The notes under the pieces were generated by a model. The model ran no database searches. It saw only the letters and a list, made by a program, of their open reading frames with translations, and was not told the origin of the DNA. 64,000 nucleotides of DNA from Candidatus Vogelbacteria bacterium (GTDB lineage: Bacteria > Patescibacteriota > Minisyncoccia > Phycocordibacterales > XYD1-FULL-46-19): contig CAIPHT010000017.1 in the NCBI GenBank assembly GCA_903864935.1, positions 16,096 through 80,095 of the forward strand, given 5' to 3'. The translations under genes and the position numbers were made by a program. This document shows, one piece after another, positions 14,126-39,869 of the stretch. The stretch's first letter is position 1, and each line of letters opens with the position of its first letter.

Positions 14126-16804
14126 ATGCCTCCATTTCAAAATTTCACAACTAAAGCCCGCGAAGTTATACGTCGAGCCCATGAGCTGGCTATTGAGCGT
14201 GGGCAAAATCAGGTTAACCCCTTCCATCTGTTGGCGGCTTTGTTGTTGCAAGAAGAGAGTATGGTTGTCTCAATTCTTGATAAATTAGAGGTTGATTCAC
14301 TTTCGCTAACCGATCACGTTTTGGACAGTATTGAGGCCTTTGGTGCGGGCAATGTGATGAGCCCCTCCTATCAGATTTATCTTACACCAGAGCTTGTTCG
14401 TATTTTTGACACCTCAGCGAAGATTGCCAGTAATTTGAATGAAGAATTTGTTTCGACCGAGCACTTGCTCCTGGCGCTTCTTGATGTCCCAAGTCCGGCG
14501 CGAGATCTCCTAACTCGTTTTAAAATTAGTAATGACGCTGTCTTAAATATTGTCCAAGAAATTAAAGCGGGCAACATCACTCCTGGGGCTAATCAAAAGA
14601 AGACCAAAGCGATTGAGAAATTCACCAAGAACCTTACCGACCTAGCGCGTGCTGACAAACTTGATCCGGTCATCGGTCGTGATGAAGAAATCCGTCGCGT
14701 GATGGAGATACTTTCTCGTCGCACCAAGAATAATCCGGTCTTGGTGGGTGAGGCGGGCACGGGCAAGACGGCTATTGCTGAGGGCTTGGCCTTGCGCATT
14801 GCTAAGGGTGAGGCGCCCGATTCTCTGCGCGACCGCGAGATTGTCTCGCTTGATCTTGGCATGCTCTTGGCTGGTACCAAGTATCGTGGTGAATTCGAAG
14901 AGCGTCTAAAAAATATAATTAAAGAAATTGAGAAATCTGAAGGTAAGATAATTCTTTTTATCGACGAAATTCATACTATTGTTGGCGCTGGTGCCGCTGA
15001 GGGGGCCGTGGACGCTTCGAATATGTTGAAGCCGGCTCTGGCCCGTGGCGAATTGCGCACTATTGGGGCGACCACGATTAAGGAATATCAAAAATATATT
15101 GAGAAGGACCAGGCCCTGACGCGTCGCTTCCAACCGGTTGTTGTCGAAGAGCCAAGTATTGAGGATGCTATCACTATCCTGCGCGGGGTCAAAGATAAGT
15201 ATGAATTGCATCATGGCGTGCATATTACCGATGGCGCGATTGTCGCGGCCGTCAACTTGTCGAGCCGTTATATTACCGACCGTTTCTTGCCAGATAAAGC
15301 GATTGACTTAATTGACGAGGCGGCTAGTGCCCTTCGTCTTCAGCTTGAGAATAAGCCCGCGGCGCTTGAAGATGGCGAACGCAAAATTATGCGTCTTGAA
15401 GTTGAGAAAGAGGCGATGAAGAAGGAGGTCAAATTGTCTGACGACAAGGAGGCCAAGACGCGGATTAAAGAAATAGATAAGAGCATTGGTGAGCTTAAAG
15501 AGACAATTCGTGAGCTTGAATTAAAGTGGAAGAATGAGAAACAAATCATCAGCGAGATTCGTAGCTCCAAGGCTGAGCTAGAGAAATTGCGTCTTGAAGC
15601 GAGTCACGCCGAGATGCGTGCGGACCTGTCTCGGGCCGCCGAGATTCTCTATGGCCGTATCCCTGAGATTAACAAAGCGCTCAAGCTCAAAGAGCAGAAA
15701 TTGAAGAAGCTCCAGAGCGCGCGCAAAATTTTGAAGGAGGAGGTGGGCGATGAAGAGATTGCCAAAGTTGTCTCACGCTGGACCGGTATCCCCGTGATGA
15801 AGATGCTTGAAGAAGAGACCGACAAATTGGCTCGTGTGGAGGAGGAATTGAAGAAGCGGGTGCGGGGCCAAGCCGAAGCAGTTGATCGCGTTGGAGAAGC
15901 CGTTAAGCGGTCTCGCGCCGGTATCTCTGACCCTGACCGTCCGATTGGCTCCTTCATGTTCTTAGGCCCTTCTGGTGTCGGTAAGACAGAATTGGCCCGT
16001 GCCTTGGCTGGCTTTCTCTTCAATGATGAGAAGGCGCTTATCCGCGTGGATATGTCGGAGTATATGGAGAAATATTCGGTCTCTAAACTTATTGGTTCGC
16101 CTCCCGGTTATGTTGGTTATGAAGAGGGGGGTAACTTGACCGAGATTGTGCGTCATCGCCCTTATTCGATTCTTCTTTTTGATGAAATTGAGAAGGCTCA
16201 TCCTGAAGTTTTCAATGTGTTACTCCAGGTTCTTGATAATGGACGCCTGACCGATGCCAAGGGGCGAACTGTTAATTTTAAGAATACCATTATTATTATG
16301 ACCTCCAATATTGGCAGTCAATTTATCAAGAATTATCAGCGCATTGGTTTCTCGAGCGGTGATGAGGGTGCCGATTTTGGCGCTGTCAAGACGAAGATTG
16401 AAGAAAGTTTGCGCGAACACTTCCGTCCTGAATTCTTAAATCGTCTTGATGAGATTGTTGTCTTCAGTCCGTTGTCCAAGGAGACATTGCGTGAGATTGT
16501 TGATTTGCAACTTGATATTGTGCGTGAGCGTTTAATTAAGAAGGGGATTAAGTTAGATGTTTCTGACGAGGTTATGAATTTCTTGTCGGGCGAAGGTCAT
16601 AACCCAGAGTATGGCGCTCGACCGTTGAAGCGTTTGATTCAGAGCAAAATTTTGAATCCGGTGGCTCAATTCATCATTGGTAAGAAGATTGATGGGGGAG
16701 GGATTGTCACTGTCTCGCTCAAAGACGGGGTGCCTTTTGTCGAATTAACTAAAGCGGTTAAATCTAAGATTAATCCAAGAGTTAAGACCGGGGGAACAAA
16801 ATAA
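14126..16804 (+). CDS. Hsp100/Clp AAA+ chaperone with two ATPase modules (ClpB/ClpC family)
   Basis: Two Clp_N repeats and D1 Walker A ([15 protein letters not shown]). A long coiled-coil middle domain of about 120 aa, which is ClpB-like. D2 Walker A ([15 protein letters not shown]) and a Clp D2-small domain. D2 also contains [10 protein letters not shown], an IGF-type ClpP-docking loop, which is ClpC/ClpA-like. Confidence 0.9.
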
Positions 16805-18646: not shown

Positions 18647-18667
18647 TCGCTTCCTTCCTGTTCGAAC

Positions 18668-18697
18668 CAAGCCCCCGACGCAACGCGTCCGGGGGCT
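18668..18697 (+). terminator. GC hairpin (aagcccccgacgc..gcgtccgggggctt) after cassette gene 2, with no clean U-tract
   Basis: Imperfect 13-bp inverted repeat immediately after the stop at 18646. Confidence 0.4.
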
Positions 18698-18730
18698 TTC
18701 TACTTCTCCTTCTTAATATTATAACACAGA

Positions 18731-18758
18731 AAAATGTCCAACATCCGATGTTGGACAT
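18731..18758. repeat. 29-nt palindrome copy 2 (AAAATGTCCAACAT-CCG-ATGTTGGACAT), downstream of the cassette and upstream of rpmG
   Basis: 25 nt identical to copy 1. Confidence 0.9.
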
Positions 18759-18780
18759 CTGAGGGACATTTTGGAGAATT

Positions 18781-18809
18781 TGCCTTTTTGGGCCTTTTCC
18801 TGTATAGTA
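18781..18809 (+). promoter_or_regulatory. candidate promoter TTGCCT, 17-nt spacer, TATAGT upstream of rpmG
   Basis: ttgcctttttgggccttttcctgtatagt. Spacing is canonical, but the -35 is a weak match. Confidence 0.35.
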
Positions 18810-18833
18810 AGACGGTCCTAAATATATATCATT

Positions 18834-18992
18834 ATGTCACAAGATTTTTTAATCAGATTAAGCTGTAAGACCTGCAAACGCATTAACTATTGGTCCAGCA
18901 AAAACAAGAAAAAAGTTGAGCGCAAGATTGAGCTCAAGAAATATTGTAAGTGGTGCAAAAAGAATACCACACACATCGAAACCAAGAAATAA
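18834..18992 (+). CDS. rpmG: 50S ribosomal protein L33 (zinc-ribbon form)
   Basis: 52-aa ORF MSQDFLIRLSCKTCKRINYWSSKNKKKVERKIELKKYCKWCKKNTTHIETKK. It has the C..C...C..C spacing and the LKKYC..C...THIETK signature of L33. Below the ORF-track length cut-off. Followed by a hairpin and T7 terminator at 18982-19008. Confidence 0.8.
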   Translation: MSQDFLIRLSCKTCKRINYWSSKNKKKVERKIELKKYCKWCKKNTTHIETKK

Positions 18993-19008
18993 GCCTCTTG
19001 GTTTTTTT
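18982..19008 (+). terminator. intrinsic terminator after rpmG: CCAAGA/TCTTGG stem plus TTTTTTT
   Basis: 6-bp stem, 8-nt loop, U7 tract. Confidence 0.5.
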
Positions 19009-19053
19009 GTTGCTTGCTTGGTTTTTAGTTTCTAAATAGTTTATACTTATAGA

Positions 19054-20385
19054 GTGGTAAATTATCGTCAAATAATTTATTTCCTTTTGTTAACTTTATT
19101 TTTTCTTTTTAATCCGTCTCCGGCTTTAGCCGATACGGCTTCTTCGCCCAGCTTCAATATGCTCGAAGGGGTGATTGCTCCGGCGGGTTATTCGGCTTCA
19201 AGCAATTTCAAACTAGATGGTCTCATTTCGCAATTTAGCATTGGGCCAAGTCAGGCTGTTGATTTTATCCTGAAGAGTGGTTTACTTTATTTCCCTATTA
19301 TCAGTACCCCTGTCGTTACGGCTTCGGCCGGTCCGGGCAAAGTCTCTCTCTCGTGGACACCGGCCACCGGGCTCCTTGGTTGGCGGGCGGGCGAATATAT
19401 CGTTGGTTGGTCAGACACTTCGGGCGGGCCTTATAATCTTGTTAGCGCGGGGACTGATCTTAGCTACACTAAGGCGGGTCTAGGTAATAATAGCCCTTAT
19501 TATTTTGTGATTAAAGTTAAGGATATGTTGGGTAATGATGTGGCCACTTCTACCGAGGTCTCGGCAACCCCGGTCCCTAATAATGACAATGGGGGAGGCG
19601 GTGGTGGCGGTGGCGGAGGTGGTAGTGGCTCTGGTCGTGTCTCAGGAGCGGGGGCAACATTTAGGGGGCGAGCTTTCCCCAACAGTGACGTGTCGCTCTT
19701 CCGTGATGGACAATTCGTCGCCACCACCAAAGCGGGGCCCGATGCTAATTTTGAAATTTCTGTCGCCAGTCTTGCCGCTGGTCTTTATAATTTTGGTGTG
19801 AATTCGACCGATAATTCTGGCCGGCAATCTTTAATTCAAACTTTCCCCGTGACCTTAACGGAGGGAGCCTCAGTGGTTGTTAGTGGTATTTTCATCGCCC
19901 CGTCAATCTCAGTGGATAAACAGGAGGTGAAGCAGGGTGATAATATTGCCATTTTCGGTCAGAGTATTCCCGATGGCAAAGTGACAATTGCCGTGAATTC
20001 GGAGAAACAAATTTTTGCTCAAGCCTCGACCGACAAATCTGGTGTTTACTTATACAATCTCGATACGGTAGTGTTGGAGATGGGGGGTCACACGGCCAAA
20101 TCTAAGGCGGCCTTGGTCAATGAGGTAAGCCCCTTTGGCCCGACAGCCGGCTTCAAGGTAGGGACGGAGAATATTTTGTTAGATCAAGCAGCGAAGAAAT
20201 GTCCGGCTAAAGGCGACCTGAATGGTGATTGTAAGGTTAATTTGATCGATTTCTCGATTGCTGCTTACTGGTACAAGCGACCACTCTCGGCCACCTTCCT
20301 CGCGCTGGAGAAGACTAAATTAAATGGTGACGGCAAACTCAATCTTACTGACTTCAGTATCATGGCGTATTATTGGTCGAAGTAA
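19054..20385 (+). CDS. Secreted protein with an FN3-like module, a poly-Gly linker, an Ig-like domain and a C-terminal dockerin-like duplicated calcium-binding loop.
   Basis: N-terminal signal or anchor (IIYFLLLTLFFLFNPSPALA). GGGGGGGGGGGSGSG linker. The C-terminus has two copies of the D-x-N-x-D-G-x-x-N-x-x-D loop (GDLNGDCKVNLIDFSIAAYW and KLNGDGKLNLTDFSIMAYYW), as in type I dockerins. Confidence 0.65.
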   Translation: MVNYRQIIYFLLLTLFFLFNPSPALADTASSPSFNMLEGVIAPAGYSASSNFKLDGLISQFSIGPSQAVDFILKSGLLYFPIISTPVVTASAGPGKVSLSWTPATGLLGWRAGEYIVGWSDTSGGPYNLVSAGTDLSYTKAGLGNNSPYYFVIKVKDMLGNDVATSTEVSATPVPNNDNGGGGGGGGGGGSGSGRVSGAGATFRGRAFPNSDVSLFRDGQFVATTKAGPDANFEISVASLAAGLYNFGVNSTDNSGRQSLIQTFPVTLTEGASVVVSGIFIAPSISVDKQEVKQGDNIAIFGQSIPDGKVTIAVNSEKQIFAQASTDKSGVYLYNLDTVVLEMGGHTAKSKAALVNEVSPFGPTAGFKVGTENILLDQAAKKCPAKGDLNGDCKVNLIDFSIAAYWYKRPLSATFLALEKTKLNGDGKLNLTDFSIMAYYWSK

Positions 20386-20417
20386 TAAAATTAACCTAAT
20401 TACTAAAAAAAATTCCA

Positions 20418-21365
20418 ATGACCCAAATTTCAAAATTTTTTAGACATTGTATTTTTGGCGCTTATTTAGGTCAATTAGAAATTAGAATAATTAGAAATTA
20501 TTTTCTGATCATTGTTTTGTTTTCATTTTTTCTGGCTACCCCCGCTCTTGCCCTAGACATCTTCCTCTTCCCCGCTCAGCCTGAATTAAGCAACGATAGC
20601 CTTGTCGTCTCCTTCGGTCTTGATACTGGCGCGGATAAGATCAATGCCGTTTCGGGCGAATTATCATATGATGTGAGCAAATTAGAACTGGTCACGACTT
20701 CTAATGCCAACTCTTTTATCTCTCTCTGGCTTGAAGCACCCAATACTAAGACGGCTGGCTCGGTTTCTTTCTCGGGTATCGCTCCAGGTGGTTTTGCCGG
20801 ACAGGGGAAAATTATTTCGCTTATTTTCAAATCTAAGACAGGGGAGCATGAGGCCTTAAATTTTGTTCATATTAAAAATGTCGAGATCCTCAAGAACGAC
20901 GGCACCGGTAGTCCTATTGCAACTAAAATTATTTCTCCCAGCGCTAGTTTGATAAGCTCTCTTGATGTATCGAGTGCTTCTGACAATAGCGCGCCCGAAC
21001 TCTTCAAACCAATTTTAAGTAAGAATGATCCGCTTCTTGGCAATCAGTCTTATCTCATCTTCAGCACCACTGATAAGGGTTCAGGTGTGGATAAGTATTT
21101 TGTTGCCGAGACTAAGTCGCGTCTCAATATCCATAATGCCGAGTCTCTCTCCGCTGCCATGTGGCAAGAAGCAGAGAGCCCATATCTCCTGCAAGACCAG
21201 TCTCTCTCGAGTTATGTCTATGTGAAGGCGGTGGATAGGGCTGGTAACGCCCTCGTCGTGGAGCTTGATCAAGGTAAAAATATTTATCAATTCTGGTGGT
21301 TCTGGGTTATAATTATAGTGGCGCTTATTGGCGTATGTCTTTGGTTAAAAAGAAAGTTTTTCTAA
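20418..21365 (+). CDS. membrane protein with a cohesin-like beta-sandwich domain and an Ig-like domain (paralog 1 of 3); the start is uncertain
   Basis: A domain of about 140 aa is shared with the 21335 and 22863 genes (..SGELSYDVSKLELV...GSVSFSGIAPGG...ISLIFKSKTGE..NDGTG). C-terminal TM (FWWFWVIIIVALIGVCLWL). The 19-nt upstream motif TAGGTCAATTAGAAATTAG lies inside the annotated N-terminus at 20467-20485, so the true start may be further downstream. Confidence 0.5.
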   Translation: MTQISKFFRHCIFGAYLGQLEIRIIRNYFLIIVLFSFFLATPALALDIFLFPAQPELSNDSLVVSFGLDTGADKINAVSGELSYDVSKLELVTTSNANSFISLWLEAPNTKTAGSVSFSGIAPGGFAGQGKIISLIFKSKTGEHEALNFVHIKNVEILKNDGTGSPIATKIISPSASLISSLDVSSASDNSAPELFKPILSKNDPLLGNQSYLIFSTTDKGSGVDKYFVAETKSRLNIHNAESLSAAMWQEAESPYLLQDQSLSSYVYVKAVDRAGNALVVELDQGKNIYQFWWFWVIIIVALIGVCLWLKRKFF

Positions 21366-22723
21366 TAGCTCTGTTTGTCACCTTAGGCCTTTTGGCGTGT
21401 CCGGGGGCTTCTGTGTGGGCCGCCGATTTTGGAATCTCTTCGCCGAAGAATACTTATGAGGTAGGGGAGACAATCCCCATTAAAATTTATGTCGCGAGTC
21501 CCGCCGAGGCCTCCAACGCCGTCTCGGGTGTGGTAAGTTTTCCTAATAATAGATTACAGGCTACCTCTCTGGCCAAGACCGGCTCCGTCGTTAATATGTG
21601 GGTCCAAGAACCAGCCCACTTTAACGCTGACGGCCAAGTTAATTTTGAGGGCGTAATTTTGAACCCGGGGTACAAGGGGAGTGCGGGCACAATTCTAACC
21701 ATTAATTTTAAAGCGCTCACGACCGGTACCGCTAAATTAAGTTTTGCCAACGGTTCTATCTTGGCCAATGATGGTGAGGGGACTAATATTTTGAAAAAAT
21801 TGGGGCAAATTTCTCTCACCATAGTCCCCGCTTCAGGGTTAAAAGTGTCCCCTGTCTCTCCTAATAAAACTGTCTCCAACAAGCCTCTAATAGCGACGAC
21901 TACCCTGCAAATAGACACCACACCACCCGAGCAATTAGCCATCGTTGAGATTGAGTCGACGAATTCTAAGCGTGCCCGTTTCTCTTTCTCGGCGAGCGAT
22001 TATCTCTCTGGCGTTGATTATTATGAGTTCAGTGTTGATGACTTGATCACTGGTCGCTTACCTTATGGCTCGAACGTCTATGAGACTACCGATCAAACTT
22101 CTGGTTCACATCGCCTTAAGATTAGTGTCTTCGACAAGGCGGGTAACGAGACCTCGCAAACAATTAATTTTGAAATCAAGCGAGAGACTTTCTTCGGTCT
22201 TGGGTCAATTTTCTCTGGCAATGGCAGTGTGATTGTGCTTGTTGTGGTGGGTGGCTTAATCTTGCTCTTAATCCTTATTATTTTACTCGTCCTTCTTAAG
22301 AGTCTTCGTCGCTTGTTCGTTCTCGAACGCGAATTAACTCAAGCGAAGACGGGGGCTTCTTCGCCCGTTGTCGCCGAGAGCCCAGCTATCAAGCCATATC
22401 AAGAAGCCTTACCGAGCACAGCCAAAATTCTCTTCCGTGGGCGCTCCGAAGCGACGCAGGCCGTGGTCTTATTGCGCAACGGACAGATTGTGGCTGAGAC
22501 CAAGCCAGGCGCTGATAATATCTTTGAATTTACTTTAGACAATTTGCCGGCCGGCTTCCAACACTTCGCACTTGTCGCGCTCGAGGCCATTGGCAATCCT
22601 ACGCTCACGCAAGATTATCCGGTGATGCTCTCGGCCGGTGCTTCAATTGTTGTCTCAGGTGTCGAGATTAAATTACCAAGTATCCCCAAAAAAGATTTTA
22701 ATTATTCTGAACCTAATGTATAA
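21335..22723 (+). CDS. Membrane protein (paralog 2) with a signal peptide, a cohesin-like domain, an Ig-like domain, a TM helix and a C-terminal beta-sandwich domain homologous to the middle of the 19054 protein.
   Basis: The ATG at 21335 (MSLVKKKVFLIALFVTLGLLA) is chosen over the GTG at 21296. The domain FGISSPKNTYEVGETIPIKIYV...TILTINFKALTTGTAKLSFANGSILANDGEGTNIL parallels the 22863 protein. After the TM, the segment FRGRSEATQAVVLLRNGQIVAETKPGADNIFEF... aligns with FRGRAFPNSDVSLFRDGQFVATTKAGPDANFEI... of the 19054 protein. Confidence 0.55.
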   Translation: MSLVKKKVFLIALFVTLGLLACPGASVWAADFGISSPKNTYEVGETIPIKIYVASPAEASNAVSGVVSFPNNRLQATSLAKTGSVVNMWVQEPAHFNADGQVNFEGVILNPGYKGSAGTILTINFKALTTGTAKLSFANGSILANDGEGTNILKKLGQISLTIVPASGLKVSPVSPNKTVSNKPLIATTTLQIDTTPPEQLAIVEIESTNSKRARFSFSASDYLSGVDYYEFSVDDLITGRLPYGSNVYETTDQTSGSHRLKISVFDKAGNETSQTINFEIKRETFFGLGSIFSGNGSVIVLVVVGGLILLLILIILLVLLKSLRRLFVLERELTQAKTGASSPVVAESPAIKPYQEALPSTAKILFRGRSEATQAVVLLRNGQIVAETKPGADNIFEFTLDNLPAGFQHFALVALEAIGNPTLTQDYPVMLSAGASIVVSGVEIKLPSIPKKDFNYSEPNV

Positions 22724-22862
22724 TTGAAGAGAAGATAAAAATTAATCTAATTACTAATTTCTAATTAACCTAAAAAAATAACCAATAACCAAAATTTAGA
22801 AATTGGGATTTGGAATTTGTTTAGAAATTAGAGTAATTAGGTCAATTAGAAATTAAGTAATA

Positions 22863-24341
22863 ATGAATTGGAAATTTAAAATTACACTCGTCTTGCTTGC
22901 TGTCATGTTGGCTTCTCCCGCTTTCGCCGCTGATCTTAAAGTTAGCGTTAGCAAGAGCGAAGTTGTCGTGGGCGAATTAATTACGGTGCGCATCATTGTG
23001 AGCACCCCCGATCAGGCGGCCAATGCCCTCTCGGGCGTCCTTAATTTTAATCCGAGCAAATTACAAGTCGTCTCTCTGTCTAAGTCTGGCTCCGTCGTTA
23101 ACCTTTGGGTGACCGAGCCGGATTTTTCTAATGCTAAGGGGCAAGTCTCTTTTGAGGGGGCTATTTTGAACCCCGGCTTCACGGGGAGTGCGGGCACAGC
23201 CCTTACTATCAATTTCAAGGCTAAGGAGACAGGCTCGGCCACCATCTCTTTTGCCAACGGCTCGGTCTTGGCCAATGATGGCTCAGGGACGAGTATTTTA
23301 AACAAACTCGGCCAGGCCATTATCTCTATCAAAGCTTTGGCGCCCAAAGTAGAGCCGGTAGTAGAAGAAGAACCAGTTGTGGCCCCAACTCCCGCCCCTG
23401 AAGTTAAGAAATCAACAACGGTACCGGGAGCTCCAGTTATCTCTTCGACAACTCACTTCGATCAGACTCGGTGGTATAACAATCGTTTCCCTAAATTCTC
23501 TTGGACTCTTCCCGATGATGTCACGGACGTTAGCTTCTTGTTTAATGATGAGAAATTGGCGACACCGGGGACTAAGAGCGATGGCCTCTTTGATGATTAT
23601 ACGGCCGACAACGAGGTGCCAGACGGTGTGTGGTACTTCCACCTTCGCCTCAAGAATAGTAAGGGCTGGGGGCCATCAGCGACCTTCGCTATCCATGTTG
23701 ATGGGACAGTACCGAACCGTTTAGAGGTTGAGGAGAAGAAATTAAGCGATCTTAATTATAAAACCAGTTTTATTTTTGACGGTACCGACGAGCTCTCAGG
23801 TCTCTCTCAATACGAATTTATTATTGATGACCTTAAGCCCGAGATAATACCCGCCGACAAGTCTCATGTCTACGAGACACCAGCGCTCTCTTCTGGCCAT
23901 CACACCTTAGTGGCCCGCGCGGTTGACCAAGCCGGTAACAAATTAGAGAAGAAGATTGAGTTCGAGATAATCTCTCCGCTTACCAAGGCCTCGCTTTATC
24001 GTTGGGGCAATGAACTTGTCATAATTTTGTCAGTCCTTATCCCACTTATTCTCCTCCTTTTAGCTTTAATTTATATTCTCATCATCGGCAGTCGCAAAAT
24101 TGCCAAGCTTAAGCGTAGTCTGCGTCAAGAAGTCAACGAGGTAGAGGAACATTTGCATCAAGCCTTTGACTTCATCCGTGATGATTTGCGTGAGCAAGTG
24201 AAATTGATTGAGAAGACGAAGGGCAAGCGCAAACTTACCTTGCTAGAGAACAAAATTATGCGCAAATTGCGCACCAATCTCACCGAAACCGAGAAATATA
24301 TCAAGAAAGACATTGAAGAAATTACGGAAAAAATCAAGTAA
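22863..24341 (+). CDS. Membrane protein (paralog 3) with a signal peptide, a cohesin-like domain, an Ig-like domain, a TM helix and a charged coiled-coil cytoplasmic tail.
   Basis: The N-terminal domain is about 50 percent identical by eye to the 21335 protein. Pro/Val/Glu-rich linker. Ig-like segment with the Y.S.D.AGN motif. TM (LVIILSVLIPLILLLLALIYILII), then a K/E-rich tail. The motif TAGGTCAATTAGAAATTAAG lies immediately upstream. Confidence 0.6.
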   Translation: MNWKFKITLVLLAVMLASPAFAADLKVSVSKSEVVVGELITVRIIVSTPDQAANALSGVLNFNPSKLQVVSLSKSGSVVNLWVTEPDFSNAKGQVSFEGAILNPGFTGSAGTALTINFKAKETGSATISFANGSVLANDGSGTSILNKLGQAIISIKALAPKVEPVVEEEPVVAPTPAPEVKKSTTVPGAPVISSTTHFDQTRWYNNRFPKFSWTLPDDVTDVSFLFNDEKLATPGTKSDGLFDDYTADNEVPDGVWYFHLRLKNSKGWGPSATFAIHVDGTVPNRLEVEEKKLSDLNYKTSFIFDGTDELSGLSQYEFIIDDLKPEIIPADKSHVYETPALSSGHHTLVARAVDQAGNKLEKKIEFEIISPLTKASLYRWGNELVIILSVLIPLILLLLALIYILIIGSRKIAKLKRSLRQEVNEVEEHLHQAFDFIRDDLREQVKLIEKTKGKRKLTLLENKIMRKLRTNLTETEKYIKKDIEEITEKIK

Positions 24342-24398
24342 AATTGACCTAAAATTGTTGATTTTTGCCTTTTGATTTGCCAATGTTATAATAGCCCT

Positions 24399-24776
24399 AT
24401 GGCCCCTAAAAAAACTATGACAATTGAAGATTTGGCTAAGTTAATGAAGCAAGGCTTCTCTAAAGCTGATACAGACACCGATAAAAAAATCGATAACTTA
24501 GCTGTTGCAATGCAAAAAGGCTTTGCTAAGGCCGAGAAAGATACCGATAAAAAAATCGATAACTTAGCGGTTATGGTTCAGCAAGGTTTTGAAGAAGTTC
24601 ATGCCGATATTTCCGATCTCAAGACCGACATTTCTCGTTTGGATGGAAGAATGGACAACATTGAGACCCGAATGGATAGCCTCGAACTTAAAATTGATGG
24701 CGTGAGAAGCATCATTGTTGTCGAGCATGGCAAGAGAATTGAGAAGCTCGAAAAGGCAGTTTTTCTTGGCCATTAG
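24399..24776 (+). CDS. small coiled-coil protein with an internal 22-aa tandem repeat (TDKKIDNLAV.MQ.GF); likely leaderless
   Basis: The ATG at 24399 lies 6 nt after a TGn-TATAAT box (24384-24392). The nucleotide repeat gatac(c/a)gataaaaaaatcgataacttagc occurs twice, 66 nt apart. Confidence 0.5.
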   Translation: MAPKKTMTIEDLAKLMKQGFSKADTDTDKKIDNLAVAMQKGFAKAEKDTDKKIDNLAVMVQQGFEEVHADISDLKTDISRLDGRMDNIETRMDSLELKIDGVRSIIVVEHGKRIEKLEKAVFLGH

Positions 24777-24778
24777 AA

Positions 24779-24799
24779 CTTAGAGGCTTCGCCTCTAAG
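24779..24799. repeat. REP-like palindrome, family 1, copy a: CTTAGAGGC-TTC-GCCTCTAAG
   Basis: Perfect 9-bp arms with a 3-nt loop, 2 nt after the stop of the 24399 gene. Confidence 0.9.
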
Positions 24800-24812
24800 T
24801 GAAGTTGTTTTT

Positions 24813-25212: not shown

Positions 25213-25878
25213 ATGGCTCAAAGAAAAGTCGAGTTTGCAATTGGAGAGTACTATCATATCTACAATCGAGGGGTTGAGGGTCGGTGTATTTTTGCTGACC
25301 AGAAAGATCTGGCTCATTTTGCGCAAAGTGTCGAAGAGTTTAATGGAAACAATGTGGTCGGAGGCCTGTATATGGGCTCTTTTAAGAAACACAAAGAGAG
25401 GGGAGAGAAATTGGTAAATATAATTTGTTACGCTTTTAACCCTAATCATTACCACTTTTTAATGACCCCGTTGGTTGATAAAGGGATAGAAAATTTTATG
25501 CAAAGGCTTGGTACGGGTCACGCTATGTTTTTTAATAATCAACACAAAAGGAAGGGCCGATTGTTTCAAGGGGTTTTCAAATCTGTTCATGTTGGTTCAA
25601 ATAGACAGCTTTTGCATGCGAGTGTTTATGTTAATCTTAACGATAAAATCCACCAAATCGGAGGCGAAGCCTCTAAGTTGGTAAAGACAAGTTGGGGTAG
25701 TTATTCTTCGAATTCTTCAAAAAAGAGAGACTTTTTGCTTGGTGACACCAGTATTATTACCGATCAATTTAAAAATTTTCAAGAATATAAAAAATTTGCT
25801 GAAGAAATTTTGCCTGATATTATTGCCCGCAAAAAATCTCTAAAAGAGCTTGAAGAATTGATGTTGGATGAGAATTAA
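25213..25878 (+). CDS. HuH-family tyrosine transposase of the IS200/REP-associated (RAYT-like) type, copy 1
   Basis: N-terminal IGEYYHIYNRGVEGR. HuH motif NPNHYHFLM. RKGRLFQGVF. Tyr-containing segment ASVYVNLN, then WGSYSS. Paralogous to the 42223 gene. Flanked by family-1 palindromes, with a degenerate copy (GAGGCGAAGCCTCTAAG at 25662-25678) inside the CDS. Confidence 0.75.
   Translation: MAQRKVEFAIGEYYHIYNRGVEGRCIFADQKDLAHFAQSVEEFNGNNVVGGLYMGSFKKHKERGEKLVNIICYAFNPNHYHFLMTPLVDKGIENFMQRLGTGHAMFFNNQHKRKGRLFQGVFKSVHVGSNRQLLHASVYVNLNDKIHQIGGEASKLVKTSWGSYSSNSSKKRDFLLGDTSIITDQFKNFQEYKKFAEEILPDIIARKKSLKELEELMLDEN
25662..25678. repeat. degenerate REP1 copy (3' arm and loop only) inside the transposase CDS
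   Basis: ggaggcgaagcctctaag, encoding IGGEASKLV. Confidence 0.6.
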
Positions 25879-25982: not shown

Positions 25983-28900
25983 ATGTTTTCTGTTTGGCAA
26001 AATTTCGTGAGTAGAAAAGGCTTTTTTGGCGTTCTTTTTTTGATTGTTTTTTCTTTTATTTTGACGCCAACTTTTTCGGCTTTTGCCGTCACCGGTGTCC
26101 CGGCCACCATGAGCTATCAGGGTCGCTTGGCGAACTCAGCCGGTGATCTTGTTGGTGGTGCCGGTGCCATCTATTCTTTCAAATTTTCTCTCTGGGACAA
26201 TGCGACCGTTGGTGCGGGTTCGCAAGTTTGGCCAGCGGGCGCGCCCACCGCTGTCAATGCTACCGTCCGTCAAGGTCTCTTCAACGTCAACATTGGCGAC
26301 ACCGGGAGTGGTTATCCCGATGCTCTCAATTACGACTTCAGTCAGAACAACAAAATTTATTTGCAGGTTGAAGTCTCTTCCGACGGTCTTACTTACGAGA
26401 CTCTTGGTCCTCGTCAACCCATCACCAGTGCGCCCTTCGCTCAAGTCGCGGGTCAAGTCTCTGGCTCTGCTGTCTCCACTATGGGTGGTCTTGTCGTTAA
26501 CGGCGGGGTCACTAGCACCCACTCCACCACCACCGGCTCGGGCTACTTCGGCACCGCTTTAGGCCTCGCCGGTCAGTATATTAATTCTTGGTCTGACCTC
26601 GCCACTTATCTCCCCGTTGTTGTTGGTTGGAGCACCAGCTCTGATAGCACCAACTTCGCCACTCTCCTCGCTGGTACGACGACGGATGCTCTTGCTGAAG
26701 GTGTCAATCACAAGTATTACAGCAACGTCTACGTCGCTGATTATATTTCTTCCTCCTCCACCCTTGCCTCCTCGTTAAATTATTGGGCCAAGTCGGGGAG
26801 CGATCTTAGTTACACTGCGGGGAATGTTGGTGTCGGGATGAGCCCTGTCTACAAGCTTGATGTCAATGGCGCGATAAGGGCTAATGGTAGCAATATTATT
26901 GCTGGAGGCGGTTCGGTGTTTGGTTGGATTTTTGGTTCGAACGGTTTATCTAATGTTGACACTACCTTAAACACCTCGGCCGGTTACAATATTTTATTTA
27001 AAAATGGTACATCCGAGCAAATGAGAATCTCTTCAGGGGGTCTTGTTGGTATCGGCACCACCACCCCTACACAAAGACTCGACGTCCTCGGCAACATCCA
27101 AGTCAACGGCACCTCCTCCTACATGATCAATGGCGTCAACCTTGCTTTTGGTTCAACCACAAAACAAAATTATTTCTTCGGTGCGGCGGGCAATAGTAAT
27201 ATCACTGGGAGTTATAACACCGGTGTCGGCAAGGGCGCGCTCGTCACCACCACTTCGGGCGGTTACAATACGGCCGTTGGGCGTCAATCTCTCTACCTTA
27301 ATACTATCGGTTCATCAAACACGGCTTTGGGTAATAACGCTCTACAATCTGTCTCGGCAGGTGATGGCAATGTCGGCCTTGGTGCTGATGCTGGTCAATA
27401 CGAGCTCGGTTCTAACTCTTTCTACCTCAATAATATTGATCAGAACGATACCGCCGGCGACAAGGCCTACTCCTTATTGTATGGCAAATTCTCTGGTGTG
27501 GCCGGTTCGCTCACCAACCAATTCCTCACCGTCAACGGCAAACTTAATATCGGTACCACTACCATGGCCTCGACCTTCAACATTCAAGGTATCTCCGGTG
27601 TCTCGGCCTTAAATATTGCCTCATCAACTGGAGCTCCGATGTTCACGGTGGCAAGCAATGGCAACGTCGGTATCGGGACCAATGCGCCAGCGTATCCTTT
27701 GGACGTAAACGGGAATGCTAAAGTTAATGGAGTTTTGACCGTATTGAATGGCACTTCTTATGGTATTCTTGCGGGACTTTCAAAATTGAATTTGTATGAT
27801 AATGCCGGGAATGCCTCATATCAAAATAGTTATACTGGAGGTTGGGGTTTTGGAATTGGGAATATCTCGCCTACCTATACTTTAGACGTTAAAGGAAGTG
27901 GAGCTGCTGGTGGTATCTTTAATGTCGCTTCGTCGTCAGGAGTAAGTGCTTTGATGGTTTCGAATAATGGCAACGTCGGCATTGGCACAAACGCACCATC
28001 TACTGGGTTACATCTTTATGATAATACAAGCACTGCTAATAAAGCTCTTATGAGATTAGAGACTACGGCTGGAAGTGGTCAGAATGCTGGAATAAGAATG
28101 ATTGGCGGGGCTAGCAATGCAGATTGGATGATTGGTACTAATAGAGCCGATTTAGCTGGTGCAGGAGACAGCCTATTATTTTATAAAAGTTTAGGCACAG
28201 CCGGAACTAAAATGGTGATCCAAGATAACGGCAACGTCGGTATTGGCACCACTTCGCCCGCAACAGCCTTACATGTTTATGGCGCAACACCAGAGATTAG
28301 GTTAGATGCGAGTGGTAGCGTCAATGCTCAATATACTTTAAATCAAAACAATGTTAAATATGGTTTATTGGGTCTATCGCTAGCCACTGATCAGCTTGCT
28401 CTTGGGTCAGCTGTCGGTGACGTTGTCCTTAGAGCTAACGCTGGTCAGAAACTTATGTTAAGCGCCAACGGTTCAGGCGCAAGCTCGACCATGACTTTAT
28501 TGAATGGTCTTGTTGGGATTGGCACCACCACCCCAAGCTCCTTGCTTCATCTCTATGGCAGTAGCGCCAACCCTTTGATTCTTGAGAGAAATAGCAGCCT
28601 TGCTAATGTTGGAATTCAATTCAAAGATACTTCGGGCTCTTGGTATGCTGGTAAGGGTACTGGGACGGGGAATTTTGCTATTGGTACTGATGCTAATCTT
28701 GGGGCCAGCACAATTTTTAATATTCAATCGAATGGTAACGTTGGTATTGGGACTTCTTCACCAGCTAACCCTTTGACCGTTGCGGATAAAGCTCAGATCG
28801 GAACATCTATTACAAACACCTCTCAGTCCGCCTCACTTGTTGTCCAAGGCACGGCTTCAAGAGCAGCCATGTATATTCAGGGTGATGCTTCGCGTTCAGC

Positions 28901-31900
28901 TTCGACCGATTTGATTTATTCAGTCAATAGATATGGAGTCGCTGGCGGATTCCAAATGTTCGGTGATCACAGCATGCTTATCGGCAGTACCGGGAAAGAA
29001 TTTCAATATCAAGGTAGCACCGGCTATGTCGGTATCGGCACTACCTCACCATCACAGTTATTGACCGTTGGGAATAACAATCAATTTACCGTCACGTCTG
29101 GGGGAGCGGTTAGTGCCACGGGCGGATTCTCGACCAATGGCACTGTCAACGCTGGTTATTATCAACTTGGCGGTATCCAAGCCTTTGCTTACTCTGGGAC
29201 GCAGGTCCAAGTTTCGCCGGCCGCCTATTGGCAATCCCTCGGCTTATTTACCAATGGTTCAGAAAAAGTTTCTATTTTAAGTAATGGCAACGTCGGTATC
29301 GGTACCACTACCCCATGGGCCAAACTTTCTCTTCAGAATTCCTACGGCTCCACAGGGGCTTTGCTTGATATTGCCACTACCACCTCGTCGGCTTTTGCCA
29401 CTTCATCGGTCTTCTATGTGGGGTCCAATGGTTACGTCGCGGTGGGAACGAACAATCCAACCAATCTTTTTGAAGTTGATGTTGGTGGTGTTTATAAGGT
29501 AGCAGTAAATGCAGGAGGAACATTTGTTGCCAAGAATGACGTAATGACCAACCTGATTGGTGATCTTGGCTCAAAATATCAGAAGATAATGCTTGATCAA
29601 GCAAACGGTTTGAGATTCTTTGCTGGCTCTTCGGCTTCCAATGAGTATATGAGAATCAACCAATCTGGCCTCGTCGGCATCGGCACCACTTCACCAATGG
29701 CCACTCTGTCTGTCATGGGCACTTCAACCTTGCCGGGCGTTAATCCTTTTGTTGTCGCTTCTTCGTCTGGTGTTCAACTTTTAACCGTGTTGCCGAATGG
29801 TAATGTGGGGGTGGGGACAACAAATCCGAGTGCTAAATTAACAGCATTTTCCGATGCAACATCCGGCGCAATAGGAGACACTCTAAGAGTATTTTCTGGT
29901 CTAGGGTCTGTAGCATTAAAAATATATTCAACCACAAATGGTGACGGATTGATCATCAATCAGTATTATCAGGGTTCAGGGCAAAATTATATCAGAATGG
30001 CGGATATCGTGTCTAACTCAGGAGATACTTCAGAAGCACAAATTCGGTTTCTAACTAAGCCAAACTCAGCAAATCCTAGCGAAGCAATGCGAATTACTGG
30101 CAGTGGTTTTGTTGGTATCGGTACTACGAGCCCCGCTCTTAAATTGCATGTATTAGGCACTATTGGTCTGCCGGCTACTTCTGGTACGGCCCAGAATGGT
30201 GTCGCAAGATTCTCGGTTGACCCAGCCGGAACGGGTTATGTTTTGGATATGGGTGTTCTCTCCGGTGCCTCATGGTTGCAGACAACTATTGCCGGTGACC
30301 TAGGCACTTATGGTTCTTTGCTCTTGAACCCACGCGGGGGCAATATCGGTATTGGCACAGCTACTCCGGGTAAGACCTTAGATGTGAATGGTGATATCAG
30401 AATAGGGGTAAATAATAAACTTTATTTGGTCTCAACAAATGATAGTAATTATCTATCATATAATGAGTGGAACACTGCCTCCTCGATTGGTCTTAAGTTT
30501 TTAATTAGTGGCAACGAGAAGATGAGAATTGATGCTTCCGGCAACGTCGCCATTGGCACCTCAACCCCTTGGGCCAAGCTCGCCATTCAGAATTCCTACG
30601 GCTCCACTCAGGCCTTGTTTGATATAGCGACGACGACTTCATCAGCCTTCGCCACCTCGTCGGTCTTCTATGTTGGGGCGAATGGCAATGTGGGTATCGG
30701 CACGGCGAACCCTGCCAAGAGACTGTCAATAACGGATGCGAATACGGCCTTAAGCGCGTATGCTTTAAATATTAGTGCTTATAAGAGCTCTGGCAATTTC
30801 TCTGGACTCTCGTTTGGCGATGATAGTGGCGGAACTGTTTGGGGCGCAATTAAGTTCAAAGCCGATACCAATAACGACAGTTCTTTGAGATTCTTGACTT
30901 GGGACGGGACGACTGGCGGCACAGAGAGATTAACAATCAAGGGAGTTGGGGGCTCAGTTGGTATTGGTTCTACTTCTCCTATTTCTACCCTCTCTGTTAA
31001 AGGTGTTGCCGGCTATAATCCATTCACCATTTCTTCTTCCACGGATGCTTCGCTCCTCACTATCTTACAGAATGGCAACGTCGGTATTGGGACAAGTAGT
31101 CCGGCGACTTCTTTGGATGTTTATAGTAATACGACGGACAATATCTTCCGTTTGATGACGGGGCCCGCTATTGGGGTGATGCCCACCTTTACCATGTCAC
31201 AAGGGGGAACCAACAATTTTCAAATTGGCCGAGCGCTAACTCTTTTCAACCCTAACCTTGGGGGTATCGCCGCCGAGAATGATGTCGGTTTCTCTGCCCC
31301 GACCAACCGAAGCCTCTATTTTGGTACCGCCGCTAATCCTTACTTAGCAATAAGAAATGGTGGCAATGTGGGTATTGGCACGACGAGCCCCCCTGATTTA
31401 CTAACTGTTTACCATGATAGCTCCGCAGACACCGTCTTAAATATTTCTAATAATAGCCTCAGTGCAAGTTACGGGAGTTCGGTTTTGAAGTTCAGCCAAG
31501 GAAACGGTGAGGCAGCCTATATCTCTTGGAATCAGGCAAACCAGCTTTTTAAATTTGTAGCTGGACGAAATAATTTTAATAACTTCTCTTTCAATACTGT
31601 TACAGGAGGAGCTGAGGTCTCAAGATTATTTATACAAAATAATGGTAACGTTGGTATCGGCTCCACTTCACCAATGGCCACCTTGTCAGTAATGGGCACC
31701 TCGACCTTGCCGGGCGTTAATCCTTTTGTCGTCGCTTCTTCATCCGGTGCTCAACTTTTGACGGTGTTGCCAAATGGCAAAGTGGGCATAGGGACAACCG
31801 GACCTGTTACTAAGTTATCTTTATCGGATGCCACGTCCACTTTTCTAACTATTTCTAATACTAACAATGCTAGTGGTGTGGTCGGAGGAATGTTGTTCTC

Positions 31901-39829: not shown

Positions 39830-39842
39830 CTAGGCCTTGCCT
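39830..39842. repeat. 13-nt remnant of the REP family-2 palindrome (CTAGGCCTTGCCT) between the giant gene stop and the LamG gene
   Basis: Exact match to the core of the 42886 copy. The chance of this at this length in 64 kb is negligible. Confidence 0.6.
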
Positions 39843-39869
39843 GGACAAAACCAAGTGCTTAAAATATTT

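Follow-up and report, generated by a model that had tools for sequence, protein, structure and literature searches.

A linked set of cohesin and dockerin genes in Patescibacteria, probably a module for surface display

The P1-P4 genes and their boundaries

The window analysed here, a stretch of 64,000 nucleotides from a Candidatus Vogelbacteria contig, contains four forward-strand ORFs, P1 to P4, in the places where the original prediction had put a dockerin-like protein followed by three paralogous cohesin-like membrane proteins. Hydropathy analysis gives P2, P3 and P4 each an N-terminal signal peptide and one C-terminal-side hydrophobic helix, in agreement with the predicted membrane anchoring, and gives P1 a signal peptide only. 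The genes and their flanking features are as follows.

18978..19005, + strand: terminator-like hairpin and T-run, 5' of P1
19054..20385, + strand: P1, 443 aa, GTG start; secreted, dockerin-bearing protein without a membrane anchor
20418..21365, + strand: P2, 315 aa from the ATG at 20418; short membrane-anchored cohesin protein
21335..22723, + strand: P3, 462 aa from M14, as in public gene calls; membrane-anchored cohesin protein
22863..24341, + strand: P4, 492 aa; long membrane-anchored cohesin protein
24372..24776, + strand: small coiled-coil ORF, 134 aa, without a signal peptide, between P4 and the next hairpin
24778..24800, + strand: terminator-like hairpin with a 10 bp stem

The exact start of P2 is uncertain, with public gene calls placing it 33 codons later, and the P3 ORF opens at 21296 (475 aa). 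Both hairpins come from a consensus scan only; the first probably closes the preceding transcription unit, with P1 opening a new one, and the second is likely to be the 3' end of that unit. The 134 aa coiled-coil ORF may be co-transcribed with P1-P4; it forms a singleton cluster, and was not found beside the operon in more distant loci.

Domains of the dockerin and cohesin proteins

P1 is a Sec-secreted protein, and its signal peptide is likely to be cleaved at ALA|DT. Members of the P1 family are ~440 aa long and ~50% identical across Patescibacteria, and some of them carry the NCBI name 'dockerin type I repeat-containing protein'. The protein is ordered as a PamT-like N-terminal segment, an FN3 domain, a poly-Gly linker, two Ig domains and a C-terminal dockerin.

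19054..19131, + strand: signal peptide, aa 1-26 (hydropathy; helix 4-19 in the AF2 model)
19132..19308, + strand: N-terminal conserved segment, aa 27-85
19309..19578, + strand: fibronectin type III domain, aa 86-175 (AF2 strands 88-171)
19579..19644, + strand: poly-Gly/Ser flexible linker, aa 176-197, GGGGGGGGGGGSGSG
19645..20169, + strand: tandem Ig-like domains of Big_6 type, aa 198-283 and 284-372
20200..20382, + strand: dockerin module, aa 383-443, with two calcium loops and three helices

Three strand motifs like S-x-[NS]-F-x-L occur in the segment at aa 27-85, which is similar to the N-terminus of PamT, a CPR pilus protein, and is modelled with low confidence in the AF2 monomer (pLDDT 32-44). 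P1 scores 18.2 bits against NCBIfam NF058579 (CPR_pilus_PamT), which is matched by 9 of 51 family members (best E 2.5e-9), all scores in the family falling far short of the 240-bit model cut-off; in one member, P0162, aa 16-104 align with model positions 10-97. Pfam fn3 is found in 27/51 members and the family profile also matches solved FN3 domains, while the linker (pLDDT <50 at 181-193) is present in the family consensus. The tandem Ig domains (AF2 pLDDT >85) match Pfam Big_6 with 25.6 bits in P1 and are recognized in 50 of the 51 members. Family variants have N-terminal head domains swapped or added and retain the polyGly-Ig-Ig-dockerin cassette, a pattern that fits a constant anchor with a variable payload.

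The predicted dockerin at the P1 C-terminus is borne out by profile, sequence and model. P1 scores 22.1 bits with Pfam Dockerin_1 (PF00404), 0.8 bit short of the 22.9 cut-off (E 1.8e-4), and 45/51 family members match (best E 3.4e-8). The P1 sequence also matches solved dockerins (E 1.6e-4), those found with the single sequence or the family profile being 2y3n_B, 5nrm_B, 4fl4, 2yik, 1daq and 2mte. Helices at 397-406, 413-422 and 431-442 are modelled by AF2 with pLDDT 92-94, and the calcium loops sit inside this confidently predicted three-helix module (pLDDT >90). Two 12-residue loops with F/Y-rich helices are present as described, loop 1 (388-399) reading D388-L-N-G-D-C-K-V-N-L-I-D399 and loop 2 (422-433) reading K422-L-N-G-D-G-K-L-N-L-T-D433, with a DFSI-x-AY-[WY] helix after each; the exact pattern D-x-N-x-D-G-x-x-N-x-x-D that had been claimed occurs in neither, because Cys replaces the 'G' in loop 1 and Lys replaces the initial Asp in loop 2. 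The loop 1 ligands D388, N390, D392 and D399 are 100% conserved in the family and N396 is 96% conserved, and a conserved pair, Cys383 and Cys393, flanks this loop. In 29/51 members loop 2 opens with Lys or Arg, and thus one calcium site may be weakened. No other P1 domain is as conserved as the dockerin (mean identity 67%).

P2, P3 and P4 share a common plan of signal peptide, cohesin, Ig-like stalk and one transmembrane (TM) helix.

20550-20942, + strand: P2 cohesin-like domain, ~aa 45-175
~aa 205-290, + strand: P2 Ig domain, Big_13/OmpL47-like
21291-21347, + strand: P2 TM helix, aa 292-310, then a 5-residue tail
21422-21829, + strand: P3 cohesin domain
21908-22183, + strand: P3 Big_13/DUF7743 Ig domain
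22229-22297, + strand: P3 TM helix
22427-22690, + strand: P3 extra Ig domain after the TM helix, 45% identical to P1 Ig1
22929-23336, + strand: P4 cohesin domain, aa 23-158
23424-23717, + strand: P4 FN3-like middle domain, aa 188-285
23718-23978, + strand: P4 Big_13 Ig domain, aa 286-372 (Pfam 29.2 bits, cut-off 27)
24015-24089, + strand: P4 TM helix, aa 385-409
24096-24338, + strand: P4 conserved coiled-coil tail, predicted to be cytoplasmic (family tail consensus)

The three proteins are indeed paralogues, the P3 and P4 cohesin domains being 56% identical (E 1e-47) and P2 and P4 32% identical (E 2e-15), and their shared domain is cohesin-like, as proposed. P4 scores 31 bits with Pfam Cohesin (cut-off 24.1), which 25/41 family members match, and its single sequence matches solved cohesins at E 3e-4 to 1e-3 (4uyp_A, E 3e-4); the cohesin family profile reached no solved cohesin by sequence at E <0.01. 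The AF2 model of P4 (pLDDT 91.5) finds as its top Foldseek match the C. perfringens cohesin-FN3 construct 2w1n (E 6e-12), in an alignment that spans the cohesin plus the next, FN3-like domain. Single cohesin modules align with TM 0.68-0.80 and rmsd ~3 Å (TM 0.80 for 2vo8), the cohesins matched being 2w1n, 1g1k, 2vo8, 4dh2, 5nrm_A and 2vn6; among the top 50 matches all single-domain ones are cohesins and none is PapD/FimC-like. Within the membrane proteins, conservation is highest in the cohesin (mean identity 0.525). All three also carry the expected Ig-like module with D-x-A-G-N, of Big_13, OmpL47 or DUF7743 type, although the literal Y.S.D.AGN ascribed to them is found only in the upstream giant protein (aa 3338, YYSVDVAGN).

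Gene linkage across Patescibacteria

The gene set is found again in hundreds of genomes of ultrasmall Patescibacteria, the named lineages being of the Parcubacteria/Paceibacteria type. Counting only loci with enough flanking DNA, two to five cohesin genes lie directly 3' of a P1 homologue in 77 of 77 genome loci whose downstream flank is long enough, and P1 is present in all 61 metagenome loci that were retrieved through the cohesin and have room upstream. The linkage of P1 and cohesin genes is thus near-obligate, and since the same arrangement is repeated in every related locus of this kind it lies far beyond chance. In most related loci the gene that directly follows P1 is of the P2 type, which a few loci lack. 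No dockerin carrier besides P1 was found in the window and 165 related loci. A literature search found no paper describing the operon; the new result is the linkage of the dockerin gene to the cohesin genes, both domains having already been named in databases. Each single dockerin gene is accompanied by two to five distinct cohesin genes, an observation that we have counted against the explanation favoured below.

Proposed surface display and its alternatives

The linkage means that P1 and P2-P4 work together, and does not specify which of their surfaces touch. The explanation that we consider probable is that they form a non-cellulosomal cohesin-dockerin module for surface display in this Patescibacteria (Paceibacterota-type) genome. 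P1, having no anchor of its own, would be exported by Sec and lose its signal peptide, and its calcium-binding C-terminal dockerin would plug into the cohesin modules at the N-termini of P2-P4. Each of these proteins would be fixed in the cytoplasmic membrane by its single TM helix, with one or two Ig/FN3-like stalk domains raising the cohesin above the membrane. P1 would thereby be tethered to the cell non-covalently, by a binding presumed to depend on calcium, and its two Ig domains, poly-Gly hinge and FN3 domain would project the PamT-like segment outward, where it may engage some further partner. The operon is probably a general means by which Patescibacteria hold a surface protein on the cell.

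The conserved N-terminal segment of P1, with its low-confidence model, could instead be the part that contacts P2-P4. More specifically, P1 might be a pilus or fibre subunit or tip adaptor whose PamT-like segment completes or accepts a β-strand, with P2-P4 taking the role that the membrane-anchored chaperones PamC/PamD or the anchor PamR have in the CPR Pam pilus, and their resemblance to cohesins being incidental. We regard this as unlikely. The family matches to PamT, a stand-alone PamT-like ORF ~2 kb 3' of the cohesin genes in one related locus (L079; E 1.3e-13), and the conservation of a segment that is poorly modelled alone, as expected if it folds on a partner, are all consistent with it, and the Pam chaperones and anchor are also two-domain β-sandwich proteins with a C-terminal TM helix (bioRxiv 10.64898/2026.03.03.709456). 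The PamT scores are nevertheless far under cut-off, the NCBIfam Pam components do not match P2-P4 at E up to 1, the P4 N-domain exceeds the Pfam Cohesin cut-off with exclusively cohesins as its single-domain matches in the Foldseek top 50, and the most conserved part of P1 is the dockerin, not the N-terminus. Strand exchange is also compatible with surface display, in that the dockerin can be the anchor and the N-terminus the strand-exchange site.

The Pam pilus of Ca. Mycosynbacter amalyticus is, like P1-P4, a CPR-specific surface system encoded in one operon, with Sec-exported Ig/FN3-type subunits and several membrane-anchored two-domain β-sandwich proteins that have a C-terminal TM helix. 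It differs in that the P1-P4 cluster is without PamA/PamB-type pilins or PapD-like chaperones as judged by NCBIfam and Foldseek. The Pam paper makes no mention of cohesin or dockerin, and Pam homologues are reported mainly from Saccharimonadia and Microgenomatia (bioRxiv 10.64898/2026.03.03.709456), as against the Parcubacteria/Paceibacteria type of the named lineages that have the P1-P4 operon.

The suggestion that the cluster docks and organizes the adjacent giant adhesins on the envelope found no support, and we think it improbable. In 57 of 84 loci giant ORFs do adjoin the operon, in most cases immediately 5' of P1, and in the window a 4613 aa protein lies 1.6 kb downstream, but both giants in the window lack dockerin and cohesin by Pfam, family HMMs and loop pattern, and no canonical dockerin loop occurs in non-P1 ORFs among ~739,000 ORF residues of the window and 85 loci. 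Moreover, the giant ORFs are a heterogeneous single-linkage group with differing C-terminal modules, and any tie to them would be indirect, via another part of P1 such as the N-terminus.

An enzyme complex resembling a miniature cellulosome, for the degradation of host or environmental glycans, is most improbable, for although cohesin and dockerin domains are present and another part of the window encodes a lectin-like protein with three Laminin_G_3 domains, P1 has FN3 and Ig domains only and no catalytic or carbohydrate-binding module, each cohesin protein has one cohesin with no CBM or SLH found, and the neighbourhoods examined hold no further dockerin-bearing gene. A cellulosome proper was likewise rejected, there being no enzymes, no multi-cohesin scaffoldin and no second dockerin in the same ~739,000 residues; the proposed surface module has no link to cellulose degradation.

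The clostridial type I pairs (C. thermocellum CipA/Xyn10B, 1OHZ; C. cellulolyticum, 2VN6; A. cellulolyticus, 5NRM/4UYP) are close known systems. Their dockerins and that of P1 are ~60 aa long with two duplicated EF-hand-like loops and a helix after each, and their cohesins and those of P2-P4 are ~140 aa β-sandwiches that match in sequence and fold. The near-symmetrical P1 repeats DFSIAAYWY and DFSIMAYYW resemble those that permit dual binding in type I dockerins (PMC12484212). Unlike the clostridial systems, the P1 dockerin bears no enzyme, there is no multi-cohesin scaffoldin or CBM, the cohesins are single and membrane-anchored, loop 2 of the P1 family usually begins with Lys/Arg and a Cys pair lies around loop 1, and the host is a Patescibacterium whose DNA in the window shows no sign of cellulolysis.

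The proposed display module follows the same logic as the cell-surface anchoring scaffoldins of cellulosomes (SdbA/OlpB/Orf2p type with SLH domains; sortase-anchored ScaE), in which an envelope-fixed cohesin attaches a secreted dockerin-bearing protein to the cell by capturing it (PMC12484212, section 4). The P2-P4 anchor is a C-terminal-side TM helix instead of an SLH domain or LPXTG motif, P4 and P3 have predicted cytoplasmic tails (a coiled coil and an Ig-like domain respectively), and neighbouring genes encode two to five distinct anchors, each with a single cohesin.

In structure, P4 is matched best by the cohesin-FN3 of Clostridium perfringens GH84C (2W1N) and the GH33 cohesin (2VO8). 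In the C. perfringens glycoside hydrolases cohesin-dockerin pairing is used outside cellulose degradation. There the modules are on secreted enzymes, which they join, whereas here they are on non-enzymatic membrane proteins and one non-enzymatic ligand.

The dockerin and cohesin genes

Four co-directional genes make up the cluster (ORF calls in the window), the first encoding a secreted protein with a C-terminal dockerin and the other three membrane-anchored paralogues that each have a single cohesin; terminator-like hairpins bracket the four.

18978-19005, terminator-like hairpin
19054-20385, + strand, P1, 443 aa, dockerin-bearing protein whose sole hydrophobic segment is N-terminal (hydropathy)
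20418-21365, + strand, P2, cohesin protein (signal peptide; single hydrophobic helix close to or toward its C-terminal end)
21335-22723 (ORF opening at 21296), + strand, P3, cohesin protein (signal peptide; single hydrophobic helix close to or toward its C-terminal end)
22863-24341, + strand, P4, cohesin protein (signal peptide; single hydrophobic helix close to or toward its C-terminal end)
24778-24800, terminator-like hairpin

The original prediction of a dockerin followed by three cohesins is borne out by profile searches and structural models. Pfam Dockerin_1 (PF00404) aligns with P1 residues 386-438 at E 1.8e-4 (22.1 bits, 0.8 bit below the cut-off of 22.9) and matches 45 of 51 P1 family members at E < 0.01, with a best E of 3.4e-8. 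The single P1 sequence also matches the solved dockerins 2y3n_B (E 1.6e-4), 2yik and 5nrm_B, and the family profile matches six solved dockerins. Dockerins were judged by two duplicated 12-residue EF-hand-like Ca2+ loops with Asp or Asn at positions 1, 3, 5, 9 and 12, each followed by a helix. Loop 1, within the last 60 residues of P1 (D388-L-N-G-D-C-K-V-N-L-I-D399), is canonical, and its positions 1, 3, 5 and 12 are invariant across the family (n=51). Loop 2, in the same 60 residues (K422-L-N-G-D-G-K-L-N-L-T-D433), carries the expected Asn or Asp at positions 3, 5, 9 and 12 (N, D, N and D); its position 1 is Lys in P1 and mostly Lys or Arg in the family (Lys 20, Arg 9, Asp 6 and Glu 5 of the 51 members), which makes this site atypical. 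Both loops are followed by DFSI-x-AY-[WY]. In the AlphaFold2 model of P1, built from a 51-sequence alignment, the module adopts the compact three-helix dockerin fold (helices 397-406, 413-422 and 431-442, pLDDT 92-94).

Two cysteines, Cys383 and Cys393 (window 20200-20232), flank loop 1 in about 80% of family members. Cys383 lies five residues before the loop and Cys393 occupies its position 6, normally Gly in dockerins; the pair may make a stabilizing disulfide, a clasp on the first calcium loop.

Pfam Cohesin (PF00963) matches P4 residues 26-139 at 31 bits, above its cut-off of 24.1, and 25 of 41 cohesin family members at E < 0.01. It gives no match for P2 or P3 on their own, and these are assigned through homology to the P4 cohesin domain (56% identity, E 1e-47, for P3; 32% identity, E 2e-15, for P2). 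P4 additionally matches the solved ScaC cohesin 4uyp_A (E 3e-4 to 1e-3) and passes Pfam Big_13 at residues 338-369. The AlphaFold2 model of P4 residues 1-380 (mean pLDDT 91.5) contains a cohesin beta-sandwich of about 140 residues, and Foldseek ranks 2w1n, a cohesin-FN3 construct from C. perfringens, first among its PDB matches (E 6e-12). Alignments to single cohesin modules span approximately 145-155 columns with target TM scores of 0.68-0.80 and an rmsd of about 3 A (2vo8, TM 0.80, rmsd 3.0; 1g1k_A, TM 0.74, rmsd 2.9; 4dh2_A, TM 0.72; 5nrm_A, TM 0.70; 2vn6_A, TM 0.68). The models thus give P4 a cohesin fold rather than a plain Ig fold, and P1 an ordered dockerin rather than disordered loops. 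Searched against PDB sequences, the cohesin family profile returned Ig-like adhesin domains only and no cohesins, so the family is divergent. Invariant Asn residues of the P2-P4 cohesin family might correspond to Asn residues that contact the dockerin in the C. thermocellum cohesin, a possibility given no weight here.

Beyond its TM helix and a stop-transfer-like KSLRR motif, P3 has an Ig-like domain (residues 378-465 numbered from 21296, window 22427-22690) that shares 45% identity (E 1e-16) with Ig domain 1 of P1, a secreted protein. Its predicted location under the positive-inside rule is the cytoplasm, an odd place for an Ig fold. L001, L002 and L006, the closest relatives, have the same architecture, and most P3-type genes elsewhere lack it. 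P4 has a conserved cytoplasmic coiled coil. Between P4 and the terminator-like hairpin lies a 134-aa coiled-coil ORF (24372-24776) with no signal peptide and an internal duplicated segment (DTDKKIDNLAV.MQ.GF); none was seen beside the cluster in more distant loci, and a tie to the P4 coiled coil is speculation.

Linkage and conservation of the operon

The nearest homologues are in Paceibacterota/Parcubacteria-type Patescibacteria, and a P1 profile scan of species-representative genomes gave at least 450 tblastn-confirmed matches. A representatives search with the P1 profile gave 2100 matches at E <= 1e-30, a number inflated by giant FN3-repeat proteins and rejected as a family size. Eighty loci were examined, from Taylor-, Nomura-, Vogel-, Magasanik-, Uhr-, Buchanan-, Niyogi- and Staskawiczbacteria, Paceibacterota and Peribacteraceae, and linkage was scored with domain HMMs built from our own alignments. 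Two to five cohesin-type genes lie downstream of the P1 homologue in every locus having downstream DNA (77/77), directly after it except for one intervening ORF in L075, and in most loci a short P2-type gene opens the run and a P4-type gene closes it. The linkage also holds in the reverse direction: among 80 metagenome loci retrieved by the cohesin profile, P1 is upstream in 61 and the other 19 have less than 1.5 kb of upstream DNA, such that P1 is missing despite upstream room in none of the 80. Within P1, conservation peaks in the dockerin (mean pairwise identity 0.67 against 0.44-0.58 in the other domains), and within the membrane proteins it peaks in the cohesin (0.525 against 0.20-0.44). 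Apart from P1 and its homologues, no ORF among about 739,000 ORF residues (window plus 85 loci) has a dockerin HMM match or even a single canonical loop.

The cohesin and dockerin domains are not themselves new, since NCBI already labels some members 'cohesin domain-containing protein' or 'dockerin type I repeat-containing protein'. We found no description of the operon in the literature on cohesin or dockerin with Patescibacteria, Parcubacteria or CPR within the searchable library, nor any paper there linking cohesin-dockerin to Patescibacteria envelope biology; one mention of a Saccharibacteria dockerin protein concerns a protein other than P1. What is new is the cohesin-dockerin operon as such, which is anchored in the membrane, is not cellulosomal and is conserved throughout a major lineage of uncultured bacteria, and its linkage is the main new result.

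Several other identities for the operon and its products were considered and rejected. A Pam pilus operon (the CPR pilus) is not indicated, as P2-P4 lack NCBIfam matches to any Pam family at E up to 1, and neither PamA/PamB-type pilins nor PapD-like PamC/PamD chaperones were found among them by NCBIfam or Foldseek; all single-domain fold matches are to cohesins and none is PapD/FimC-like, contrary to a Pam chaperone identity. A cellulosome is at odds with P1, which has only FN3 and Ig domains besides its dockerin and no catalytic or carbohydrate-binding module, and a cellulosome scaffoldin with P2-P4, which have one cohesin per protein, no CBM or SLH match and a TM-helix anchor. SEML1_0315, an essential 'dockerin domain' protein of Southlakia (Cell 2023, PMC10633639), is not a P1 orthologue; at 927 aa, with three Ig/FN3-type domains listed and no cohesin neighbours, it falls outside the P1 family.

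Two copies of the P1-plus-cohesins operon are present on separate contigs of one MAG, CAYZGX01 (L033 and L035), reflecting either a true duplication or a mixed bin. Immediately 5' of P1 in 51/84 loci (L003:7104-7463, L004:7580-7969 and 49 others) is a small protein, roughly 134 aa long, that combines a TM helix at the N-terminus with a conserved core (LP..E.PT.ATV.D...LKDQPFF..AK.GDKVLIY..A.KAILYDP). Neither the window nor its closest relative, L006, has such a protein near P1.

A predicted surface tether

Patescibacteria represent a very large and mostly uncultured share of bacterial diversity and are thought to live attached to other cells. They have no outer membrane, and to our knowledge the building and anchoring of their surface structures are largely unknown. 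The operon offers a compact gene set, present in hundreds of genomes, whose parts have well-understood biochemistry. The obligate gene linkage and the conservation of both domains lead to the prediction that the cohesins bind the dockerin, and P1 is probably tethered at the surface in this manner, with its N-terminus outward. P1 would be secreted and retained by the binding of its dockerin to the P2-P4 cohesins, which would stand on Ig/FN3 stalks over single TM anchors, and its FN3 domain and PamT-like N-terminus would be presented outward to a putative partner. In the predicted arrangement, one secreted protein would plug into sockets on several membrane anchors in a Ca2+-dependent manner and so be tethered. 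If true, this would take cohesin-dockerin beyond the assembly of enzymes and make it a part of envelope architecture in general within a major lineage, and would supply both a conserved dockerin as a handle to pull down surface complexes from enrichment cultures and a natural set of membrane-anchored cohesins for protein display.

In the rest of P1, the model confidently places FN3 at residues 88-171 and Ig domains at 199-280 and 289-370, with a poly-Gly hinge between FN3 and the first Ig domain. A Foldseek search with the full P1 model returned FN3/Ig tandem proteins only, the 60-aa dockerin being too small to surface. Residues 27-85 are modelled at pLDDT 32-44 yet are conserved, contain three S-x-[NS]-F-x-L-like motifs, and are the only part of P1 matching the NCBIfam model CPR_pilus_PamT (NF058579). 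That match scores 18.2 bits against a cut-off of 240, with an alignment limited to the N-terminal ~70-95 residues; nine of 51 P1 family members match (best E 2.5e-9), all with scores far under 240 bits, and P1 thus does not qualify as a PamT equivalog. PamT is the proposed tip subunit of the CPR Pam pilus (bioRxiv 10.64898/2026.03.03.709456). A stand-alone PamT-like protein of 258 aa is encoded about 2 kb 3' of the cohesin genes in a Nomurabacteria MAG (L079:5074-5850; NF058579 E 1.3e-13, 50.9 bits, under the cut-off), and it has S-x-N-Y-x-L N-terminal motifs in common with P1.

Variant members of the P1 family have N-terminal head domains added or swapped and retain the polyGly-Ig-Ig-dockerin cassette, which suggests a constant anchor with variable payloads. 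Ten such variants of 500-680 aa (P0255, P0266, P0281, P0294, P0311, P0313, P0325, P0341, P0292 and P0316) either have an extra domain after FN3 or have the head replaced by other domains, in some by a Cys-rich module (CGNNIKE.GEQCD...).

A more specific role, which we regard as unlikely, is that P1 serves as the basal adaptor of a CPR host-attachment organelle, its N-terminus joining a fibre or pilus and its dockerin plugging into the TM cohesins. The PamT-like segment would then make the junction through beta-strand complementation, with the syntenic giant tail-fibre-like protein or a Pam-like filament as candidates for the fibre, and the conserved cytoplasmic tails of the cohesins would couple the outer structure to the cell interior. 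Were P1 such a link between membrane and fibre or pilus, the operon would be of high interest; in Paceibacteria, cohesin-dockerin would then anchor the attachment apparatus in the membrane, the place proposed for PamR in Saccharimonadia.

Giant proteins and surrounding genes

The genes around the cluster are housekeeping genes (SOD, trypsin-like protease, ClpB, topoisomerase I and tRNAs) together with those of two giant secreted proteins. The suggestion that the cluster organizes these giant adhesins is not supported as originally framed; neither has a cohesin or dockerin, and a link to them would need another part of P1. Pfam matches nothing in one of them and a Peptidase_S74 tail-fibre chaperone domain in the other. 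Giant ORFs adjoin the operon in 57/84 loci and are heterogeneous.

The protein with the chaperone domain (25983-39824) is a secreted product of 4613 aa with dozens of '...NGNVGIGT...' repeats and a Peptidase_S74 intramolecular-chaperone domain at residues 4329-4379 (~38967-39119), as in phage tail fibres, followed by a Pro/Thr/Ser-rich tail. A tail-fibre-like protein is reported to be a constant neighbour of pam operons as well (bioRxiv 10.64898/2026.03.03.709456). Directly 3' of the giant gene, 39837-42077 encodes a protein of 746 aa that has three domains of the concanavalin-like lectin type Laminin_G_3 and weakly matches a sialidase N-terminal domain.

Upstream of P1 is an ORF-free gap of 408 bp (18647-19053), in which Rfam has no match and where a strong terminator-like hairpin lies 330 nt after the preceding ORF ends. 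Only about 7 nt separate a TATACT-like hexamer from the GTG that starts P1, which could mean a leaderless transcript or a mis-set start. The promoter scan was uninformative, and Rfam and tandem-repeat scans gave nothing relevant. The 64-kb window has two genes for Clp-type AAA+ chaperones, one full-length and ClpB-like (14126-16804, 892 aa) and one of 816 aa with AAA_2 and ClpB_D2-small domains (55388-57838).

The block comprising the 4613-aa giant gene and the lectin-like gene is flanked by paralogous Y1 (IS200-like) transposase-like genes (25213-25878 and 42223-42903; 37% identity, E 2e-31), the second of which reaches Pfam Y1_Tnp. This block could be mobile or rearranged, which fits the position of the giant gene downstream of the operon here and upstream of it in most other genomes.
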